Source of the DNA: an uncultured delta proteobacterium
GTDB lineage: Bacteria; Desulfobacterota; Desulfobulbia; Desulfobulbales; BM004
Reading direction: 5' to 3'
DNA length: 64,000 bases
NCBI GenBank assembly: GCA_963783905.1
Contig: CAWAPG010000005.1
Span: 2,820 to 66,819 of the forward strand
The stretch's first letter is position 1; the number at the start of each line of letters is the position of its first letter. The notes under the pieces were generated by a model. That model was not told the origin of the DNA. It saw only the letters and a program-made list of their open reading frames with translations, and searched no databases. A program made the translations under genes and the position numbers. Below, piece after piece: positions 2,046-42,268 of this stretch.

Positions 2046-5000
2046 ATGGACATGTCGGCTGAACATCGGATTCCAATCATAGCTTTCGTCTGGCGGCCTG
2101 AAGAGATGTGCCTGCCTGTGACCCAAATGGCGCAACGAACCGGGACCAGGGCCATCTTCGATTGTTCCATGCTGAAGGCGGAAGCACTCCGTTCTGTCTT
2201 GCGAAAAACCGGCGGTGCCTGCCCCGTCCGTGATATTAAGATTTCCGCCCCTGCCTTGATGGAACCGTCTCTGGAGCAGTTACTGCAAGAAGCAGGGGTC
2301 CAAAACATCTGGGTCGAATGCCCCAACCGGTTATTCCAGGGGACTTTTTCCGTCTTTCTCCAGAGATTGCGGCAATTGTCGCAAGTCTATTGTTGCTTTC
2401 CAATCCTCGGAGACTTGCATTTTGCGGCAACGATATTGACCGATAACTATGGCATCGGCCGCGTTGTCCTGAAAGGATGCGAGGCATCCGGATTTGTTAG
2501 CGGCGAGACGACCCTGGCGTTTTATGCAGCGGTCAAGGAGATGCTGTCCAACTCACCGCAATCAGTGGACATCCTCATCTGGGGTTCTATCTCCACCCCT
2601 GAGGCGGCAGCGGCATTGCTATGCACCGGGGCCACGGGGATCGTCTTCGAGAGTCTCCATTGGCTGACCGACCTAGTTGCCGTTGATGATGATCAGCGCC
2701 TACGACTCTCCAACCTCCGCCTGGATTCGACCGATCTGGTCGGCCTCGACTTGCAGGTCCCCTGTCGCCTTTTCAACAAGGGCAACTCGACCGCGTTCAA
2801 GGAACTCAAACAGTTCGAAAGTTCGCTGTGCGGAGCAACGATCACGGAGGAAAACCGTCGTTCCTTCGCAGACCGGGTGCGTACCGGGGCCGTCCACCCT
2901 CTTGCAAGCAGCTTCAGCCCGGACGAGGTCATCCCTCTTGGTGTGGAGACCGCCTTTGCTGCGTCCTTTGCCGAACGTTTCGGGACGAAGACCGAGGTAG
3001 CTGTCCAGTCCTTCATGGATGAGACTCGCAGCCTGTGCCGCCTGGCTGAGGTAAAAAAGGATTTCTTTCTGGACAGCCCTGTAGCCGCAGAGATGGGAGT
3101 CACATATCCCTTTATCCAGGGGGCCATGTCCTGGATCTCTGATGTCCCGGAGTTTGCCGCAAGGATTGCCGAGGCCGGTGGACTGCCTACCATTGCCCTT
3201 GGCCTCATGGACGCTCAGGCCCTTGATCAGAGGCTGGGACGCCTGCCGGAGATTATGGCAGGACGCCCTTATGCAGTGAATATCATCTCTCTGGCAGAGA
3301 ATCCTTGCAGGGAGACCCAACTGGCTTGGATAAAGAAACACCCGCCCCGTTTTGTAGTGATCGCAGGCGGTGATCTCTCGCCTTTAAAGGAATTGCTGGA
3401 ATGCGGCCTGGAGGTCATATATATCGCCCCTGATGAGGCCCTGTTGCAGCTCGCCCTTAAAGCCGGCGTCCGCTACTTGATCTGCGAGGGGTATGAGGCC
3501 GGCGGGCACGTGGGGCGCCACAGCACCCTTACCCTGGCGCAAAGGGTGTTGGATCTGAAACGACAAAAACCAGGCCTGTTTCAAAAGTGTCGCATTATTC
3601 TTGCCGGGGGAATCTGCAATCGGGAGACCGCATTCATAGCCGCTATGCTCGGAGCGGATGGTATCCAGATGGGCACCGCGTATCTGGCCACCCGGGAGAT
3701 CGTTGAAACGGACGCCCTGACCGCGCTCTATCAGCACATGATCCTGGAATCGGTTCCGGGCGGAACGGTCGTTTCAGGCCAGGCCACCGGGCTTCGGGTA
3801 CGATCCTTGCGGACCCCGAGAACGGAGGCGGTTTTATCCCTGGAGAGGGAGTTTGCCGCGGGGCACCAGGACGAGCACTCCTTTCGCATGAAAATAGAAG
3901 AAATGACGGCCGGGAGCCTCTTTGCCGCGGCCCACGGCATGAACAGACCTGGCGGGGCGCCTCTCGATGAGTCGGCCTGCCGGGAACGCGGCCAATTCAT
4001 GAGCGGGGCCTGCGCCGGCCTCATCAGTAATGTCCTGGATCTGCCGACCTTCCATCGCGAACTGGCCGTAGGTCCTCTTTTGTTGCATCAGCCATTTGAA
4101 GAGGCAGCCATCGAAAAAATAACGGCAGCTTCATCTGAACCTTCGCACCCCATAAAAACCACATCCCCCGTGTCTGGCCATGGACTGAAGCAGAGAACGG
4201 TGTATAGAGCTGCCCATGAAAGGGTTGCCATCACCGGCATGAGTATTCTCAATACCTTGGGAAAAAGTCCGGATGAGATCTGGACTGCCAGCCTGGCCAT
4301 GAAAAGCGGGATTACCCTGGTCCCGTCTTCCCGGTGGGATCACGAGCGTTTTTATGACCCCCGCCCGTTCGTCCCGGACAAGACTTACTGCAAGGTGGGC
4401 GCCTTCCTGGACTTTCGGATCTCACGCAATGAACTCGGGATCCCCCCCCATGATTTCCGGACCATGACCGAATCCACCAAGACCACCATGTGGCTGGCGG
4501 AAAAAGCTATCCGGGCATCCGGCATCCTGGAGTCAGACATTCCGCGGGAACGAATCGGGGTCCTCATTTCCCAGAATTCGGGAGAAGCGGCGGAGCCCCT
4601 GACCGATTTGATCATAAGGGGATACGTGCATGACATCCTCGCCTGCATCAGAAAGGCCGTTCATCTCACACCGGATCAGTTGAGTGCCATCGAAAGCGAG
4701 GTGAAGTCCGGACGCACGCCCCCGGACGATACTACCCTCCTGGGCAGACTCAACTCCGCAGCGGGCGGCTTTATCTGCAACCGGTACGGGTTCATGGGCC
4801 CCAGTCATTCTGTCTCCGCAGCCTGCGCCACCTCACTGGTTGCACTATACAGCGCTTTCCAGATGATCCAAAACGGCATCATCGATGCAGCCATCGTCGG
4901 CGGGGGCGAAGAGCATCTCACCCACCTTCATTTTGTGGAATTCTCCGCCCTGGGCGCTCTTTACGGGTTGTCAGGACAGGAAAGGCCCGCTCACGAGACC

Positions 5001-14625: not shown

Positions 14626-17600
14626 TTAGTCATGCTGCAAGGCTTCCAGCTCCGCAACGACAACATCCAGGGTAAAACGAATCTGTTCGGGCGTATGGGT
14701 GCAGTTGACAAAAAAGCGCAGCCGGGCAAAGTTGTCAGGAACTGCCGGATAGACCATGGGCAAGACATCGATCCCCTGCTGGGAGAGGGATTGCGAGAGT
14801 CTTGTCGCCTTCAGGGAATCTCCCACGATCAACGGAATTATAGCGGAATCGCAACTGCCGGCGCCGGTATTGAGACCCCTTTCCCGAGCCAGCAGATGAA
14901 AAAGCCCGGCGAGTTCATGGAGGTGCGTCACCCGCTGCGGCTCCTTCCGCAACAAGCGAATGGCGGCCAGGGCTGATGCGACATTCGGCGGCGATATGCC
15001 CACGCTGTAGACGAAGCCCGGCGCCGTGTATTTCAGGTATTCGATGAGGGCCCGGGAGCCGGCGATGTAACCTCCGCAACTGGCAAAGGATTTGCTCAAG
15101 GTGCCCATCCAAAGTTCCACATCGGCGGGATTGACACCAAAGTGCTCGCCAATCCCCCTGCCTCTTTTCCCCAATGCCCCGATGGAATGGGCCTCGTCCA
15201 CCATGAGAAGGGCACCGTACCGTTTCTTTATCTTGATAAACTCCGGAAGTTCAGGGATATCACCATCCATACTGTAAAGGCCTTCGATAACCACGAGGGC
15301 CCGTCGGAAACGGGGTCGCGACTCCTTGAGAATCGTGTCCAGGGCTCGCCAGTTGTTGTGCGGAAAAGAAAGAGACGTTGCCTGGGAGAGCCGGCATCCC
15401 TGGAGAACACTGTTGTGGATCAGGGCATCATGAATGATGAGGTCGGATTTGCCGAAAAGATGGCCGATAGTGGTCACGTTGGTGGCATGGCCGCTCACAA
15501 ATACCAGGCTGTCCTCGGTACCAATCAAATCGGCGATTTCTTGCTCAAGCTCCCGATGCAGGGGCCTTTCGCCTGAGGCAATACGGCTTGCCGAAACGGA
15601 CGTGCCGTAGCGGTCGATGGCGTCTTTGGCGGCTTGCGATACGACCGGATCTCCGGACATACCCAGGTAATTGTACCTGGAAAATGAAATGAACTCTCGA
15701 CCTGCGGCAATGGCGCAATTGAAGTCGACCCCTTCGTGCACCCGGAAGTAAGGATTGTCGATACCCCGCGCCTTCATTCCCTGGATGATCCGCTGCAGAT
15801 TCCGGTATTCGGGGTAGTCCGCAAACGGCAGGTACTCCGGTTGTATCTTAGGGGCCTTGCCATGGACGTCAGCCTTTTCCGCCGGCTCTCCGGATTGACG
15901 GCCGGATGAAAGCAGCTTTCCCAAAGGTCCGTCTTTGGCTTCAAGTCCTCTTCCCGACGTCCTTTGCCAGAGAACATGCGCTGTCAGGTCGGAAATACCA
16001 GCCCCCAGAAAGAGCGCCTCAAAGGGAAACTCGATTCCCATCTCTTCTTCAATGTCCGTCTTCATCTCCATTGCCATCAAAGAATCAATGCCCATCATAT
16101 TCAGGGGACAGTGCACATCCACCCTGGAGAACGGGATCTTCAGGAGGTCCGCCACCTTTTTGGTAATATAATGCTCAATGGCACGGAAGAACTCCGACGT
16201 ATCTTTTGTCTCCATGTCATCCGATTCCAACAAGTCGAGCTTAAGTGCACGGCCATCCGGAAGGCTTGCAGCCGACGTGTCCGTTCTCATGTGGCCCGGT
16301 TTCCATTCGTCCCATGCCTCGTCGCGGGGTATCCTCGGCTCAACTTCCCAGGAAGGGACCGGACACTTGGCAACAACCTGCAAGTTGCCCTGGATGAAAT
16401 GTTCCCGACAAAGGCGACGTTGGACCTTGCCACTGGTCGTTTTGGGAAGACTTGCGGTCTTGATGAGCGCCACCGCGTAAACCCCGATTCCATGCTCTCT
16501 TGATACACTTTGGCAAATGGATTTGACCACCGCCACTGCGTCAAGTTTTCTGAGGTGTAGTCGCTCGATCTCCTGCACCACCACCAACCGTTCATCACCC
16601 CCGACTTCAACGGCGAACGCCACCCCGCAGCCTGGCCGCAAGGCCTCATGGCTTCTCTCCACGGTCCCCTCAATGTCTTGCGGATAGTAATTGAGGCCCC
16701 GGATGATAATGAGGTCCTTCAGACGACCGGTGACAATGAGCTGGCCGGCATGGATGAACCCGAGGTCTCCCGTACGCAGAAAGGGACCTTCTCCCGTATC
16801 AGCAAGCCTTGCCCGGAAGGTCTGCTCCGAATCTTCGGGCCGATTCCAATATCCTTGGGCAACACTTGGTCCAGAGATCCATATTTCTCCGATCTTATCG
16901 CGCTCGCAGAGAGTTTGCGTCTCCGGGTCGACGATCACAATCTCATGGCCCGGCAACACTTCCCCGGTTCCAACCAGCTCGAAATCGTGCTCGCTGTCTT
17001 CTGCCGCCAGGGAAAAGCGGCCGGCTATCAACGCCTGCGCGTCCACCTGCAGGAATGTCGGTTTGGCGCTTTTGTCGCATCCGGTGGCGATAAGGGTCAT
17101 TTCCGAGAGACCATAACAGGGCAGAAATGCTTTTTGCCGAAAGCCGCAGGGTTCGAACGCCGCGGTAAAGCGCTGGAGCGTCTCCCACCTGACCGGCTCG
17201 GCACCGTTAAAAGCGACATCCCAACTGCTCAGATCAAGCTCTGACTTCTGCTCCGGCGTGATCTTTTGCACACAAAGATCGTAGGCGAAATTCGGCCCGC
17301 CGCTGCTCGTGCCCTTATAGCGTGAGATGGCCATAAGCCAGCGGAGCGGTTTTTGGATGAAATGCACTGGCGATATCAGGATCGCATCTCCACCTGCGTA
17401 AAGGGGCTGGATGATCCCACCGACCAACCCCATGTCGTGGTAAGGCGGCAGCCAGATTATGCCGCGCATACTCGATGAATGCCCAAAAACTGTTTGGATG
17501 GCGGCTGAATTATGGAGGATGTTTCCATGGCTGACCATTATGCCCTTGGGATTTCCCGTGGAACCGGAGGTGTATTGGAAGACAGCGGAGGAATCAGCAC

Positions 17601-18141
17601 CTAGGGGGGGTTCCTGCCAACCATCTGCCAGGTCGTCGGCAATGGTGTCGGTTGCTATCCAGTTGAGGGTCGCCAGCCCGGGAGTCTGACCTATTTGGTG
17701 TCCGTACTTCTCCAGGGTTGAGGCGGTGGAGAGAGCCGCTGCTGGTTCTGCGTCGGCTGCCGTTGCGGCGAGGCTGGCCAGGAACCGGTTGGAATACGGG
17801 AGATTGACCGGCACGGCGACCATGCCCGCACACAGGCACCCGAAGAATGCCGCGGGAAACTCGATGCCCGTAGGGTAAAGCAAAAGGACTCTTTCCCCCG
17901 GAGAGAAACGAGATTGAAGATGTGCGGCAATGGCAAGCGCCCTCTGTTCCAGCTCACAATATGTCAGTCCGGTTTCTTGTGATTCTCCATCGTTGAGATA
18001 GGTGTAGATGGTTTTCTCTCCATGGACTTGAGCCCTTCGGCGCAGCAGGTGGATCAGGTTCGTAACTCCTGGCGTGCAACTCCTGGGGACCGGGGAGAAG
18101 TGAGCCGTATGGCTTGAATCGTCTTCCAGACTATTATACAT
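14626..18141 (-). CDS. Tri-domain fusion: fatty acyl-AMP ligase (FAAL) - ACP - PLP-dependent alpha-oxoamine synthase (Spt/BioF/Kbl family)
   Basis: Intact 1171-aa ORF. FAAL motifs are FQYTSGSTGNPKGIMVSHGNILHN, YGLSE, TGDLGF and PKTTSGKVQR. The ACP motif is MGIDSLMAMEM (Ser codon 16081-16083). The AOS domain has YNYLGMS, SGHATN, DEAHSIG and the PLP-lysine in GTLSKSFASCGGY (Lys codon 15091-15093). Confidence 0.85.
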   Translation of the reverse strand: MYNSLEDDSSHTAHFSPVPRSCTPGVTNLIHLLRRRAQVHGEKTIYTYLNDGESQETGLTYCELEQRALAIAAHLQSRFSPGERVLLLYPTGIEFPAAFFGCLCAGMVAVPVNLPYSNRFLASLAATAADAEPAAALSTASTLEKYGHQIGQTPGLATLNWIATDTIADDLADGWQEPPLGADSSAVFQYTSGSTGNPKGIMVSHGNILHNSAAIQTVFGHSSSMRGIIWLPPYHDMGLVGGIIQPLYAGGDAILISPVHFIQKPLRWLMAISRYKGTSSGGPNFAYDLCVQKITPEQKSELDLSSWDVAFNGAEPVRWETLQRFTAAFEPCGFRQKAFLPCYGLSEMTLIATGCDKSAKPTFLQVDAQALIAGRFSLAAEDSEHDFELVGTGEVLPGHEIVIVDPETQTLCERDKIGEIWISGPSVAQGYWNRPEDSEQTFRARLADTGEGPFLRTGDLGFIHAGQLIVTGRLKDLIIIRGLNYYPQDIEGTVERSHEALRPGCGVAFAVEVGGDERLVVVQEIERLHLRKLDAVAVVKSICQSVSREHGIGVYAVALIKTASLPKTTSGKVQRRLCREHFIQGNLQVVAKCPVPSWEVEPRIPRDEAWDEWKPGHMRTDTSAASLPDGRALKLDLLESDDMETKDTSEFFRAIEHYITKKVADLLKIPFSRVDVHCPLNMMGIDSLMAMEMKTDIEEEMGIEFPFEALFLGAGISDLTAHVLWQRTSGRGLEAKDGPLGKLLSSGRQSGEPAEKADVHGKAPKIQPEYLPFADYPEYRNLQRIIQGMKARGIDNPYFRVHEGVDFNCAIAAGREFISFSRYNYLGMSGDPVVSQAAKDAIDRYGTSVSASRIASGERPLHRELEQEIADLIGTEDSLVFVSGHATNVTTIGHLFGKSDLIIHDALIHNSVLQGCRLSQATSLSFPHNNWRALDTILKESRPRFRRALVVIEGLYSMDGDIPELPEFIKIKKRYGALLMVDEAHSIGALGKRGRGIGEHFGVNPADVELWMGTLSKSFASCGGYIAGSRALIEYLKYTAPGFVYSVGISPPNVASALAAIRLLRKEPQRVTHLHELAGLFHLLARERGLNTGAGSCDSAIIPLIVGDSLKATRLSQSLSQQGIDVLPMVYPAVPDNFARLRFFVNCTHTPEQIRFTLDVVVAELEALQHD

Positions 18142-18471
18142 TTCTTCCTTTTCGGTCGAAGAAACTTTTTTTGTTTCAAGATAATCCTGTCGTATATTCG
18201 CAACAAGATGTGTTTCATGTCCTTACTATTTGAAACATATAATAAATCTTTAGAGTAGTGCAACTAAAAGAATGGGGAAAGCAAGGCGTAAAGGGATAAA
18301 TATTCGAGGGGCCAGACTACTTGAGAGGTTTCTCTCTAAACCTTTTTCACAACAAGTAATATAAGTTTTCATTACGATAGTTAAATCTAAAACTCACATT
18401 TTTTCAAATGAAGATAAAAGGTATTTCGGGGCAGACCATGTATTTTTATCCACCAGCTTTCATTGCAGAGC

Positions 18472-18520
18472 AAAAAGAAATGAGCGCCTTTCCATGTACT
18501 GGAAAGGCGCTCATTTTTAT
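18472..18520 (-). terminator. Rho-independent terminator (bidirectional architecture) after the ZraP/CpxP-like gene
   Basis: A perfect 13-14 bp stem pairs 18481-18493 (tgagcgcctttcc) with 18501-18513 (ggaaaggcgctca) around a 7-nt loop. It is flanked by an A-run on the left (a T-run on the minus strand) and ttttt on the right. Confidence 0.65.
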
Positions 18521-18561
18521 AGGGGTATGAGAAAGTAGGCAGGAAAAACTAAGATCAAATA

Positions 18562-18993
18562 TTACCAGCCCATCATGTGCCCGCCACGACCGGGGCCGTA
18601 ACCTCGCATCGTGCCCGGGCCATGTTCATATACGGAGGGGTTGTCAATCTCGGCGGCTTCCGCTTTTTTATCAAGATCTGTTTCCAGGTCAAATAGTTCT
18701 CCGGTGAGCTTTGCCACCTTTATTTCGTCAGGATTATCATTGCGCATCAAGGCGTTTAATTCACTTCTCTTAACAACAATTTCTTTGCGGACCGCACTTG
18801 TATCAACTTTGAATTTTTCCAGTGCAGCCTGGTCTTTTTCCGTTAAACCTTGACTATCTGCGTCATAGCTGCCGCAATAACCCGGTCCGTAATTGTTGTT
18901 GCCGAAATATCTGCCGCCATGGGCGGATACCGTCTGAATACCTGCAAAAGTTAATACACTTAAGAGTGCTGCTGCTGTTACCATTTTTTTCAT
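18562..18993 (-). CDS. Periplasmic CpxP/Spy/ZraP-family protein (LTxxQ-type) with Gly/His/Met-rich termini
   Basis: Signal peptide MKKMVTAAALLSVLTFAGIQTVSA. LTEKDQAALEKF matches the LTxxQ motif, the body is a helical repeat, and the tail is GPGRGGHMMGW. The RBS is GGAGA, 7 nt upstream. Confidence 0.6.
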   Translation of the reverse strand: MKKMVTAAALLSVLTFAGIQTVSAHGGRYFGNNNYGPGYCGSYDADSQGLTEKDQAALEKFKVDTSAVRKEIVVKRSELNALMRNDNPDEIKVAKLTGELFDLETDLDKKAEAAEIDNPSVYEHGPGTMRGYGPGRGGHMMGW

Positions 18994-19467
18994 TTTTATT
19001 TCTCCAGATTAGTTTGTTCGTGTTTTTCATTATTATCATTCACTGCCAATATTGGTAGTTCGCCTTTTGATTATATTATGCATAAGGCGTGCCAGAGTTT
19101 TATTTTGAGCCAGTATGTTTTTTAAAATCCAATTATCTCAAGGTTATGAGAGGGCTGCCAGATTGGAATTTCGGCACGGGATGATATATGAGAACGTATC
19201 GTTCCTATCCAATGGTTGAAGAAAAATAGAGAATACTCTTCACTATTGCTGCTGAAAGAATTTAATATTTTTAAATAATTACCTTTCCGAAAAGATGAAA
19301 TCGTCTAAAAGAAAATTGATGGAAAATGTATTTTGATCAGTTGTTAAAGTTGAAACAAACCAATAGTTCATATTATTTGCACAATAGATGGTTTTGTCAC
19401 CTCCAGGTTTTATTATGTATAAGAAGGTTTGATACCGGATGACATCATGAATTCTCTACGCTTAGCC

Positions 19468-19662
19468 CTAATTGTTAAATGGTTTAAATCTATTAATGTG
19501 TTTCATTTTTACCAGCGCATAATCTATTGATATTTTTAATGATTCTACTGTGCAGGCATTGAAAGGGTATTTGAAATGGGGGGATTCTACTATTTTAGTG
19601 GCTTTAAACATCCACCCTGGGGCTTCAGTTATCATAAATCCTTTGTGTTCCTCTTGTTTCAT
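19468..19662 (-). CDS. Small hypothetical protein (64 aa) in AT-rich spacer
   Basis: ATG at 19662 is preceded by AGGAG at an 8-nt spacing (plus-strand ctcct at 19671-19675). No recognisable motifs. The ORF-track start at 19701 lacks an RBS. Confidence 0.4.
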   Translation of the reverse strand: MKQEEHKGFMITEAPGWMFKATKIVESPHFKYPFNACTVESLKISIDYALVKMKHINRFKPFNN

Positions 19663-19885
19663 AGTAACTACTCCTATAACATTTAAAATATTAAAGCCCA
19701 CAACAACTGATATGGGTGAGTGGGGATATATGTTTTTCCAATACAGATATTATTGTTTTTGCGTTACTATTTTATACAATAAGCACAGTTGAAGTTTTAT
19801 CTACCATAATATTTATCTTGTAACGGATTTTGCCATAATCGTGAATTGCACAGTTGATATTCCAAATCAGGATTACTTGCCACAG

Positions 19886-20330
19886 GTGTGCCACGAACGC
19901 ACCAAAGGGTTTTATACCCCCAAGCGCGGTGCTGTACAAGAGATGAGGGCAGGTTTCTCGAAGCCGTCATACAGGTAGAGGCTTCAAACTACCTTAAGCT
20001 GCGCTGGTAAAGAGCCAGGGTGGTGAGTGTTAAGGAAAAGGCCTCGCAGGACGGGGTCAGGTAGGATTCAAGGAGGCGAGCGCAAGCGAACCACTGATGA
20101 GGTGTCGAAAAGTTAAAGATGACGTCAAAACCGAAGGCTTGTGGTACTCCGGGATAAGTTCAGGGGAGACCTGTTTACTGCCTGGGCGGCGTCCGGCATA
20201 AAGGTGGCGCGACCTTGAAACAGGCTCTTGTATGGAACGTGAGAACCTGTCGTTCCGATGATAACGGGAGACTGTCACGTTTGGAACTGTGAGAGCCAGG
20301 GGGTGAGATTCCCCCAGCTACTCGACTCGA
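19886..20330. ncRNA. Candidate large structured RNA (class unknown; strand not established)
   Basis: A GC-balanced block inside AT-rich spacer, with stops in all six frames. It has many nested complementary segments (coordinates are in the findings), including a three-way junction at 20170-20224 and a G5/C5 hairpin at 20299-20315. Confidence 0.3.
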
Positions 20331-20451
20331 AGGTTTTAATCCCTGCCGTTCTTCTCTCCGGTGTTTGATGGTTATCTCAAATTACGGCAAAAGACATATT
20401 TTCGTCATTCATGCAGGTGTAAAGCAACACTGGGTCAACCCTGACAAAGCG

Positions 20452-20937
20452 TTACTCCAATTTTTTTTTGATTTCCTGCACATTGGGCTTGTTAAGCAAC
20501 TTCACAATCTTCGGATTGGTCATCAAACCGTTAAAGTCGCCGGAGTTGATCGCCTTTATAATGGTTTCGTCCTGGAGGATATCCTGGAAGTCCGGGTCGC
20601 TCTGCAGGGACAGGATCAGCTGCATGATAGAACCATCCGCTATCATTTCTTTTTGGATCGCCATGATTTTCTGTTGGCCCGAAACCTCTCCCGGTTCAGC
20701 CGTTGTTCCTGATATATTACGGATGGTCTTAACCCTCGCATCTTCTACCTTCAAGGTTCCAAGGGCAGCAGTCTTAATGGTGTAAACCCCCTCTGTCAGT
20801 GATACCAGCTCGCCGACGATAACGCTGCCGTCAGCCAGGACGATCTCCCGTATTTCTCCGGCGTGAACTGCCGGGGGGAGAGTCATGCAAAGCAGCAAAA
20901 AAATACCACACAGTGTTTGTTTCATTGTTTTCCTCAT
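20452..20937 (-). CDS. Secreted hypothetical protein (161 aa)
   Basis: The signal peptide ends in PPAVHA. The protein has an N-terminal beta-rich part and a C-terminal helical part, with no recognisable family motif. Confidence 0.6.
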   Translation of the reverse strand: MRKTMKQTLCGIFLLLCMTLPPAVHAGEIREIVLADGSVIVGELVSLTEGVYTIKTAALGTLKVEDARVKTIRNISGTTAEPGEVSGQQKIMAIQKEMIADGSIMQLILSLQSDPDFQDILQDETIIKAINSGDFNGLMTNPKIVKLLNKPNVQEIKKKLE

Positions 20938-21258
20938 ACCGATCCTATCCTTCGCTTTTATGCGTCTCGTCTGAAATCATAGTATTGATAATCTATTTCT
21001 ACCGACCTTAATTGGAGATCGGCAGTTTACATGTACATGTTAACAACATTTCTGCGATTAAGGAGGAAAAAGGTTCTATCTGCCGGGAATTGATACCAAT
21101 GTGCTGTATAGGCTTTTGCAAGCGGTTCATGCTTAAACATCCAGCCCTTTTTGAAAACCTGATGCCGCGGATTGATCTCGTTTGGTTACCCTGACAAGAG
21201 CCGATTATTCATTTAAAAATCTTAACATCTAAAATATCATTGGCGAAGAAATGCAGCA

Positions 21259-21894
21259 TCAGGGGACGTAACGCACTGTGAGCAGCGGAGCGGTAATGGA
21301 GACGGAAGGAAGATCCTCAATGCCTACAAACCCCACATCTGTAGAGAAATCGAGAATAAACCGCACCTGGAAATCCGGGAGACCGAGGCGTTGCGCTTCC
21401 CGCATTAATGGCGTAACGTCAATCGATACAAAAGTCCCAAGATCCACATCAAAAAAATTTAACGATTGAGACATCCACGGGTCAGAATCGAAGTCTTGCA
21501 CCCGCAAGCCGGCAACAGGGAAAGAGACAAGATCGAGGAGCGTGGGGACAATGGAAGAAAAATTCACTTCGTTAATGAATACTTCCAGGGTTGCGGAAAC
21601 TATTCTGGCGTTAATAGGTATAACATTCCCGCCGGTGGAATCGTCGAGTGGAAAATCCAGAAAAGCACGGTATTCCGGTAGATTTTGGTCAAGATCATCA
21701 ATACCGAAAAACAGAGTTCCCGGTCCGTTGGTAATAGTGTAGGATTGCAGGGCAGGATCAAAGGCGATATCACCATCCGCCGGCTGATCGCTTAAGATGT
21801 CGGCCACGATTGCTGGCCGCGGACTGCTCCCGCCGTTGCAGGAAAGGGTCAACAGCATTATAGCCAAAATCCCGAGTAGTGATAGTTTACGCAT
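21259..21894 (-). CDS. Lipoprotein, possibly with a DNRLRE-like beta-sandwich domain
   Basis: Lipobox LLTLSC follows the signal peptide, and a strong RBS AGGAGG lies 6 nt upstream. The pattern RAFLDFPLDD...IPINARIVSATLEVFIN resembles the R-x-L-L-x-F-D-L ... I-x-S-A-x-L signature of DNRLRE-type domains. The call is by eye only. Confidence 0.6.
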   Translation of the reverse strand: MRKLSLLGILAIMLLTLSCNGGSSPRPAIVADILSDQPADGDIAFDPALQSYTITNGPGTLFFGIDDLDQNLPEYRAFLDFPLDDSTGGNVIPINARIVSATLEVFINEVNFSSIVPTLLDLVSFPVAGLRVQDFDSDPWMSQSLNFFDVDLGTFVSIDVTPLMREAQRLGLPDFQVRFILDFSTDVGFVGIEDLPSVSITAPLLTVRYVP

Positions 21895-22491: not shown

Positions 22492-22578
22492 TGGTGCCGA
22501 AGGGGAGATTTGAACTCCCACAGGGAAACCCCTACTAGACCCTGAACCTAGCGCGTCTACCAATTCCGCCACTTCGGC
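22492..22578 (-). tRNA. tRNA-Leu (anticodon CAG), CCA encoded
   Basis: The reverse complement reads GCCGAAGTGGCGGAATTGGTAGACGCGCTAGGTTCAGGGTCTAGTAGGGGTTTCCCTGTGGGAGTTCAAATCTCCCCTTCGGCACCA. It has a 7-bp acceptor stem, a long variable arm, and anticodon loop TTCAGGG. Confidence 0.92.
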
Positions 22579-40092: not shown

Positions 40093-40168
40093 GCTGGCGT
40101 AGCTCAATTGGCAGAGCAGCTGATTTGTAATCAGCAGGTTGCGGGTTCAAGTCCCATCGCCAGCTCCA
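40093..40168 (+). tRNA. tRNA-Thr (anticodon UGU), CCA encoded
   Basis: GCTGGCGTAGCTCAATTGGCAGAGCAGCTGATTTGTAATCAGCAGGTTGCGGGTTCAAGTCCCATCGCCAGCTCCA, with anticodon loop TTTGTAA. Confidence 0.93.
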
Positions 40169-40238
40169 GACGAGTAGTCGCAAGTGTCGACCCGGGAAGC
40201 TGTTCATGAGAGTGGGGCGGTATCTGCGAAGGTGAAAT

Positions 40239-40323
40239 GGAGGGGTTCCCGAGCGGTCAAAGGGAACAGACTGTAAATCTGTCGGCGACGCCTTCGGAGG
40301 TTCGAATCCTCCCCCCTCCACCA
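40239..40323 (+). tRNA. tRNA-Tyr (anticodon GUA), CCA encoded
   Basis: Acceptor GGAGGGG pairs with CCCCTCC. The anticodon loop is CTGTAAA, a long variable arm is present, and the T-arm is GGAGGTTCGAATCCTCC. Confidence 0.93.
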
Positions 40324-40463
40324 TAGATCATGTGCGGGACCGGTTGGTTCAGCGCGTTATTTTATTCTGGTTCTGGCGACTCAGTTTATGGATATATTAA
40401 GGATATATATGGTATGGCGGAAACGGTCATTAAAATCCATCAATTCCTAACCGACTGATTGAA

Positions 40464-40539
40464 GCGGGAATAGCTCAATTGGTAGAGCATCAGCCTTCCA
40501 AGCTGAGGGTTGCGGGTTCGAGACCCGTTTCCCGCTCCA
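40464..40539 (+). tRNA. tRNA-Gly (anticodon UCC), CCA encoded
   Basis: Acceptor GCGGGAA pairs with TTCCCGC. The anticodon loop is CTTCCAA, and the T-arm is GCGGGTTCGAGACCCGT. Confidence 0.93.
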
Positions 40540-40617
40540 ATTAATTCTCTGGAATGCATCTGTCCGCCGCACTAAAGAGAATTCAGGCTTATGCCGAGAG
40601 GGGAGGAGGGCTTTTAA

Positions 40618-40693
<76 letters not shown>

Positions 40694-42191: not shown

Positions 42192-42268
42192 AGGCCAGTA
42201 GCTCTAATTGGTAGAGCACCGGACTCCAAATCCGGGGGTTGGGGGTTCGAGTCCCTCCTGGCCTGCCA
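42192..42268 (+). tRNA. tRNA-Trp (anticodon CCA), CCA encoded
   Basis: Acceptor AGGCCAG pairs with CTGGCCT. The anticodon loop is CTCCAAA, and the T-arm is GGGGGTTCGAGTCCCTC. Confidence 0.92.

Follow-up and report, generated by a model that had tools for sequence, protein, structure and literature searches.

The locus and its match to group II introns

The window, that is, the whole stretch of 64,000 nucleotides (64 kb) that was analyzed, contains at 18100-19885 a 1.8-kb AT-rich stretch with a GC content of 28-36% in a genome of ~55% GC. The sole family-matched ORF of this stretch is the gene of a small Metal_resist (PF13801) periplasmic-type protein (18562-18993, minus strand), and the stretch is possibly horizontally acquired or an insertion hotspot. 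Between this gene and the one at 14626-18141 lies a near-perfect long hairpin (GAGCGCCUUUCCA...UGGAAAGGCGCUC; 18470-18527) with A/U runs on either side. Both strands of this hairpin give weak ctRNA_pGA1 matches, and it most likely serves as a terminator for both directions. The element described here follows the AT-rich stretch and lies 125 nt from the 3' end of a convergent gene (20452-20937). The window also holds a long-arm tRNA (22495-22578, minus strand), 2.2 kb from the element, and further downstream a cluster of four tRNAs (40093-40690, plus strand) and one more (42192-42265, plus strand).

The GC content of the DNA switches from 0.28-0.35 over 19200-19900 to 0.45-0.555 over 19800-20300. 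The initial annotation had seen this switch to a GC-balanced block inside an AT-rich spacer, and had rightly described the block as free of long ORFs: the largest (20057-20278, minus strand) has 73 amino acids and no Pfam match. A decayed protein-coding gene was likewise rejected, as the ORFs of the block and of its flanks are without Pfam matches. Minimum free energy folding of the 441 nt gave uninformative z-scores of -1.37 (plus strand) and -1.30 (minus strand). Since folding of the single sequence shows no unusual structure, the claim of a structured RNA was tested by homology.

An Rfam search, which the initial annotation had proposed as a check, placed the block among group II introns, with a plus-strand match to RF01999 far above the gathering score. 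In BLAST searches, 19919-20272 (element positions 34-387) aligned at 74-82% identity with the domain I sequences of RmInt1-like introns, which came from many phyla. The element matched 401 plasmid records, the best of which span element positions 34-387 at 74-78% identity. Domain I matches were found in Rhizobiales, in Salmonella/Shigella plasmids and at no fewer than 120 genome loci, and a search of a phage collection gave two weak partial matches only. These strong Rfam and BLAST matches rule out a large structured RNA of a new class, the heading under which the block had been annotated. The resemblance to an ORF-less group II intron, which the same annotation had pointed out and left open, is correct as to the family. 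The element is not a complete intron of this kind, as domains II to IV and the 5' strand of domain V are deleted. The features that define its extent are as follows.

19886-20326, plus strand: whole element, read here as an internally deleted group II intron from the Rfam matches, the similarity to RmInt1-like introns, GUGUG, the EBS/IBS pairing and the conserved 3' end CUACUCGAC followed by U
19886-19890, plus strand: 5' terminal GUGUG (consensus GUGYG); over its first 18 nt, GUGUGCCACGAACGCACC, the element is identical to the full-length Sinorhizobium meliloti intron in L001 at the 5' end
19945-20062, plus strand: match to RF01999 (group-II-D1D4-2), 93 bits against a gathering score of 36, E~1e-17, full model 1-118
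20324-20326, plus strand: 3' terminal GAC (consensus AY); in relatives the conserved CUACUCGAC is followed by variable exon sequence

The GUGUG with which the initial annotation began the block is the true start of the element, and the motif GTG[CT]G[CT]CACGA is common to 113 loci. As for the 3' end, the RT reading frame of the host gene at locus L056 picks up directly past CUACUCGAC.

The element is 74.7% identical to the S. meliloti intron in L001. There, an annotated ltrA begins shortly downstream of the matched region; it encodes 419 amino acids with RVT_1 and GIIM domains only, without an endonuclease domain, and is itself followed by a genuine domain V-VI (RF00029, 56.3 bits). This layout indicates the organization of an RmInt1-type intron. 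RmInt1 belongs to IIB3/class D and lacks the endonuclease domain (PMC5894124). Class D/IIB3 (RmInt1-like) is thus the likely lineage of the element, an assignment made from nucleotide similarity to the S. meliloti intron and not from IEP phylogeny.

Domain I and exon recognition

The family was sampled with the invariant motif GGAACGTGRGAACCTGTCG of the 3' end of domain I, which retrieved 6 viral loci and at least 120 genome loci from many phyla, plus metagenome loci. The nearest domain I relatives among the matches listed have 80-82% identity and come mostly from Desulfobacterota or "delta proteobacterium" MAGs; the closest among them is L099, which is ORF-less. Seventy-two relatives, non-redundant below 88% identity, were aligned over ~490 columns. 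Pairs canonical in at least 85% of the 72 aligned sequences were taken as supported, and these show heavy two-sided covariation.

19891-20242, plus strand: domain I, closed by the stem 19891-19895/20238-20242; consensus structure of the 72 relatives with 102 supported pairs
20139-20144, plus strand: EBS1 UUGUGG, in the loop 20137-20146
19879-19885, plus strand: IBS1 GCCACAG, positions -7 to -1, of which CCACAG (-6 to -1) pairs 6/6 with EBS1, including one U-G wobble
20111-20115, plus strand: EBS2 AGUUA, in the loop 20108-20120
19873-19877, plus strand: IBS2-like TTACT at positions -13 to -9 of the 5' flank, which pairs 4/5 with EBS2

The window keeps 98 of the 102 consensus pairs. Four are broken, against a family median of two: 19891-20242 (C.A), 19968-19977 (C.A), 20066-20220 (A.A) and 20134-20149 (A.C). 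The first of these, in the closing stem, and the last, in the EBS1 stem, are canonical in 72/72 relatives, which show covariation between C:G and U:A at 19891-20242. A helix GAG/UUC (20241-20243 with 20253-20255) was considered for domain I and rejected, since CGUGRG pairs instead with the 5' YCACG (stem I), again with C:G to U:A covariation. With 102 covarying pairs, most of them retained in the window, the consensus of the 72 relatives indicates that the block is a real structured RNA domain, even though folding energy alone did not bear out its description as helix-dense.

The individual helices drawn in the initial annotation fared unevenly against this consensus. The helix 19960-19965/19980-19985 is canonical in 97% of the relatives and covaries. 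From the stem 20170-20176/20218-20224, which had been taken to close a three-way junction, only CCUG/CAGG (20170-20173/20221-20224) is conserved. The two hairpins placed within that junction (20179-20198 and 20201-20216) do not belong to the covariation-supported consensus, where their bases pair elsewhere, for example in 20158-20166/20178-20187 and 20102-20107/20194-20199. Pairing of 19920-19927 with 20001-20007 is canonical in only 56%, and that of 20101-20106 with 20121-20126 is beaten by the covarying long-range pairs 20102-20107/20194-20199 and 20121-20126/20188-20193. Finally, the helix 20233-20239/20251-20257 clashes with the conserved stems 20226-20235/19932-19941 and 20238-20242/19891-19895.

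The complementarity between CCUG, in the loop of the hairpin 20158-20187, and CAGG is conserved in ~70 relatives, and both segments are unpaired in the consensus. They may form a long-range tertiary pairing of domain I that resembles alpha-alpha'.

The exon-binding sites were compared with the flanks throughout the family. The EBS1 loop pairs with its own 5' exon at a mean of 5.68 of 6 positions in 110 relatives, versus 4.06 with shuffled exons; for the EBS2 loop and positions -13 to -9 the means are 4.44 of 5 versus 3.61. Both the EBS1/IBS1 and the EBS2/IBS2 pairings covary family-wide. The positions found for the element match those published for RmInt1 (IBS1 at -1 to -7, IBS2 at -9 to -13), which points to insertion by RNA-guided reverse splicing.

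Joining of the flanks gives the insertion site ...TTACTTGCCACAG followed by TCGAAGG.... After this removal of the intron in silico, no ORF longer than 54 amino acids crosses the site, and the ORFs of the flanks have no Pfam match; the site is non-coding. No promoter or terminator signal above shuffled expectation was detected at the element. Within the 64-kb window there is no second copy of the element, and tblastn with eight intron-encoded proteins (IEPs) found no IEP homologue there, in agreement with the initial annotation. By this insertion, the AT-rich spacer can be recognized as a place where mobile elements land.

The 3' part and the internal deletion

Past domain I, alignment with the ORF-less relatives revealed that the 5' strand of domain II runs directly into CGGGAGACUGUCACGU of domain V. 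The following parts can be recognized.

20252-20264, plus strand: remnant of the domain II 5' strand, GUUCCGAUGAUAA; domain II of L105, L057 and L101 starts with the same or nearly the same sequence (GUUCCGAUGAUAAGGGAGAAA)
20264-20271, plus strand: deletion junction and microhomology, ACGGGAGA; in BLAST these 8 nt align with two places in L099, a copy in domain II (AAGGGAGA) and one in domain V (ACGGGAGA)
20265-20287, plus strand: domain V remnant, made up of the upper 5' strand, the GAGA loop and the whole 3' strand (CGGGAGACUGUCACGUUUGGAAC); ACGGGAGACUGUCACGU is identical to domain V of L015, L018, L024, L028 and L049
20252-20287, plus strand: hybrid domain V-like hairpin of the domain II 5' strand and the domain V 3' strand, predicted at -10.8 kcal/mol
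20291-20323, plus strand: domain VI with the bulged branch-point A 20320, aligned to domain VI of 80 relatives and covarying

The two short sequences that the deletion brought together are similar: GAUGAUAA-GGGAGA comes from the start of domain II, GAUGA-CGGGAGA from domain V. The longer sequence across the junction is GATGATAACGGGAGACTGTC. In L099, itself ORF-less, 216 nt more lie between the domain II and domain V copies of the junction. Only 13 nt of domains II to IV, the domain II 5' strand, are left in the window, and the strand with which it pairs in relatives (CGGRRC) is gone. Also missing are the remainder of domain II, domains III and IV, J2/3, the RT gene and the domain V 5' strand GAGCCGKAUG with the AGC triad. 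The distance from the end of domain I to domain V is 1300-1520 nt in 45 relatives, 200-330 nt in 29 (the ORF-less copies), intermediate in 9 and longer in 3. Distances below 100 nt are confined to the window and the metagenomic locus L011.

A complete domain V of 34 nt with AGC triad, 2-nt bulge and GNRA loop is therefore not what the window contains: the GAGA loop and the 3' strand are present, and the basal 5' strand is replaced. At the position of the catalytic triad the window has UUC (GUUC), against AGC (GAGC) in 80 of 86 relatives. The match to RF00029 (Intron_gpII, domains V-VI) at 20250-20326 reaches 26.1 bits, below the gathering score of 40, versus 56.3 bits in L001. The Rfam alignment allowed a complete domain V with the compensatory changes AG>UU and UU>AA; this was rejected, since the ORF-less relatives show that the 5' strand is the start of domain II.

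In the hybrid hairpin, GUUCCG of domain II pairs with UGGAAC of domain V. The domain V 3' strand differs from that of the closest relatives by the change of CCGGAUC to UUGGAAC; of these three substitutions, two allow additional pairing with the domain II strand. Several relatives already carry GGAUC, so that only one change (U>A) is needed for the strand of the window. In this small sample, the pair-creating substitutions could hint at selection for the hybrid hairpin.

The tail of the element (20264-20326) shows 85-88% identity to domains V(3')-VI of L099, L028 and L074. The 33-nt hairpin with G5/C5 stem and AGC/GCU extension noted in the initial annotation is real, and it is domain VI and not a candidate domain V. 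The branch site that had been sought without success is A20320, a canonical bulged adenosine 7 nt from the 3' end; the element ends ...GAC at 20326. This agrees with a domain VI whose branch A lies 7-8 nt from the 3' end and with a 3' AY. Relative to its homologues, the domain VI of the element is short of 1 nt in the 3' strand, and it carries an A.A mismatch at 20298/20316.

The junction is also found in short-read data. Two Logan contigs of run ERR11523667 are 100% identical to the window. One of them (L145) corresponds to 20190-21593, contains the junction and continues without interruption from the 3' exon past the 3' terminus of the element and across the junction. The other (L139; 17841-19915) stops exactly 30 nt (k-1) into the intron. 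The contigs break there, inside the intron 5' end, and a second time within domain I. Logan contigs have k=31 (PMC12424806). An assembly chimera is excluded, given that the joined sites share only 8 nt and the junction was assembled at this k, which leaves no room for a chimera of the de Bruijn graph. The simplest reading of the end of L139 is that the first 30-mer of the intron (GTGTGCCACGAACGCACCAAAGGGTTTTAT) has more than one upstream context in the sample, which would mean that this sample also contains related copies of the intron. The mini form itself, with L145 unbroken through the 3' end and the junction, looks single-copy.

A pattern specific for the junction had no match in the contigs of 185,579 genomes. 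In metagenomes it gave nine matches, eight of which are ordinary introns hit by chance in domain II and the ninth is L011. A looser pattern run against viral contigs returned chance matches only.

Origin, fate and relatives of the element

These data lead us to read the block at 19886-20326 (plus strand, 441 nt) as a dead, internally deleted group II intron of the RmInt1-like lineage, with a probability of about 0.85. It is a degenerate copy within a well-described family, an ordinary mobile-element relic and no new kind of RNA. The candidate for an unknown large RNA can be struck off, as the Rfam domain I-IV model detects the relic directly.

The element shares with RmInt1-like introns the 5' GUGUGCCACGAACGCACC, the sequence (74-82%) and secondary structure of domain I, the geometry of EBS1/EBS2/+1 recognition, the loop and 3' strand of domain V, domain VI with its bulged A, and the 3' end. 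In contrast to these introns of ~1.9 kb, the 441-nt element is without domains II to IV, the IEP and the domain V 5' strand with AGC, and it carries helix-breaking mutations. The ORF-less relatives (L099, L105, L057, L074, L039; ~650-700 nt), which likewise have no RT ORF and are 80-82% identical in domain I and 85-88% in domain VI, keep domains II and III, a short domain IV hairpin and a full domain V with AGC, whereas the element lacks a further 216 nt. HYER ribozymes, as described by Liu et al. in Science in 2024, are reportedly ORF-less DNA/RNA endonucleases derived from group II-C introns in bacterial genomes. They would resemble the element as ORF-less group II derivatives in a bacterial genome, and are said to be class C derived, with an intact domain V core, and multicopy, whereas the element is class-D-like, has lost the core and is single-copy in the 64-kb window.

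The closest counterpart in architecture is L011 (Ga0179593_1076025, 973 to ~1402, ~430 nt), where domain I is fused to a partial domain V and domain VI and the AGC triad is absent. Its breakpoints differ (CCUGUCG followed by UAUGAAUCGAGA..., fused as CCUGUCG followed by UAUGAAUCGAGAGGUUCACGUACAGUUC) and it belongs to another sub-lineage, which makes it an independent event. FRE652 of S. meliloti and S. medicae is also a class D intron leftover, itself non-autonomous, that persists in the genome (PMC5894124, PMC4181065). FRE652 and most described fragments are, however, 3'-truncated (domains I-III and part of IV), while the element keeps both termini and has an internal deletion. The Euglena plastid group III introns, with a domain-I-like part and a domain VI with branch A and no domains II-V (PMC4424553), offer a resemblance only: they are ~100 nt long, genic and spliced, whereas the element has a full domain I of 350 nt, lies in a spacer and is predicted not to splice.

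The history of the locus may be reconstructed as follows. An intron RNA would have reverse-spliced into AT-rich non-coding DNA, guided by pairing of EBS1 and EBS2 with the sequence just upstream, and the RT of another copy would have made DNA of the inserted intron. The inserted form was probably already ORF-less, at ~657 nt, like L099. A deletion of ~216 nt relative to L099, which may have come about by replication slippage, recombination or RT template switching, removed the catalytic center and left domain I, a hairpin that merely mimics domain V, and domain VI. Any transcript of the element would lack the catalytic center and, with no IEP encoded in the window, should be capable neither of self-splicing nor of movement, and the element would now be drifting. 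The loss of the AGC triad, J2/3, domain III and the protein-binding site of domain IV, together with the helix-breaking mutations, argues best for a remnant that is most likely non-functional. The nearly fully paired domain I, with four broken pairs against a median of two, would mean either that the deletion is recent or that some constraint persists.

Could the element instead be a functional, non-autonomous mini-intron, spliced or mobilized in trans by a related full-length intron elsewhere, and so a bacterial analogue of the Euglena group III introns? We consider this unlikely, even though the element retains both ends, EBS1, EBS2, the branch A and the GNRA (GAGA) loop intact, the hybrid hairpin has good pairing that two substitutions improve, and L011 arrived independently at the same architecture. 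In other genomes, ORF-less relatives clearly spread in trans, and the end of L139 k-1 nt into the intron is compatible with related copies in this sample; yet the 3' part and the junction look single-copy there, and the junction pattern occurs in none of the 185,579 genomes and, in metagenomes, only in L011 with other breakpoints. The whole catalytic core (AGC triad, J2/3, domain III) is gone. Domain IVa, the primary binding site of the IEP, is deleted as well, stem I and the EBS1 stem are mismatched at positions invariant in 72 relatives, domain VI is damaged, and the non-coding site provides no selection for splicing. The arrangement of domain I, hybrid hairpin and domain VI, seen twice independently (in the window and in L011), might itself define a "group III-like" trans-assisted mini-intron or record a recurrent RT template jump from domain V to the domain I/II boundary; we hold this pair of ideas to be quite improbable.

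Domestication of the fragment, as a cis-regulatory element or a small-RNA scaffold for the neighboring genes, is very doubtful. It would suit the almost fully kept structure of domain I and the convergent gene whose 3' end is 125 nt away, and domestication has been suggested, though no more than suggested, for the persistent RmInt1 fragment FRE652 (PMC5894124). However, motif and pattern searches of genomes and metagenomes found no conserved orthologous copy, no promoter or terminator signal rises above shuffled expectation, domain I and domain VI show signs of decay, and a recent origin explains the preservation of domain I equally well. A large RNA of a new class, a decayed protein gene or an assembly chimera is scarcely credible: the GC-balanced island in an AT-rich spacer with all frames closed would fit such readings, which are opposed by the strong Rfam and BLAST matches to group II introns, the lack of Pfam matches and the presence of the junction in a Logan contig at k=31.

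The remnant thus gives a natural example of group II intron decay by internal deletion between two short similar sequences, where descriptions usually have the 3' end disappear. This internal position of the loss is the only mildly unusual point about the remnant. At least 12 relatives are plain 3'-truncated fragments, which are frequent in the family, and fragmentation is a described fate of bacterial group II introns (PMC4496777, PMC5894124).

ORF-less copies account for 29 of the 86 family copies with a recognizable domain V; only a short hairpin is left of their domain IV, and 200-330 nt separate domain I from domain V. They are found at loci L015, L019, L020, L028, L036, L039, L042, L044, L047, L056, L057, L064, L067, L068, L072, L074, L097, L099, L101, L102, L104, L105, L114, L130, L132, L135 and L137. 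ORF-less bacterial introns were called rare in a 2015 review (PMC4424553); in the RmInt1-like lineage they are far from rare. Some MAGs hold several ORF-less copies beside one full-length intron, such as Vicinamibacterales 98a3bb7b, with L042, L068, L072 and two at L130 versus L089.

A further observation concerns the insertion sites of the relatives. In 36 of 110 family copies (e.g., L001 at 2981-3000, L004, L009, L019, L056 and L078) the intron lies directly 3' of a YADD-coding sequence (TAYGCNGAYGAY followed by GUGYG), which indicates that the lineage often homes into the RT gene of other group II introns. L001 shows both the interrupted RT coding sequence (2217-3101) and, at 1752-1972, a match to RF02005, a domain I-IV model.
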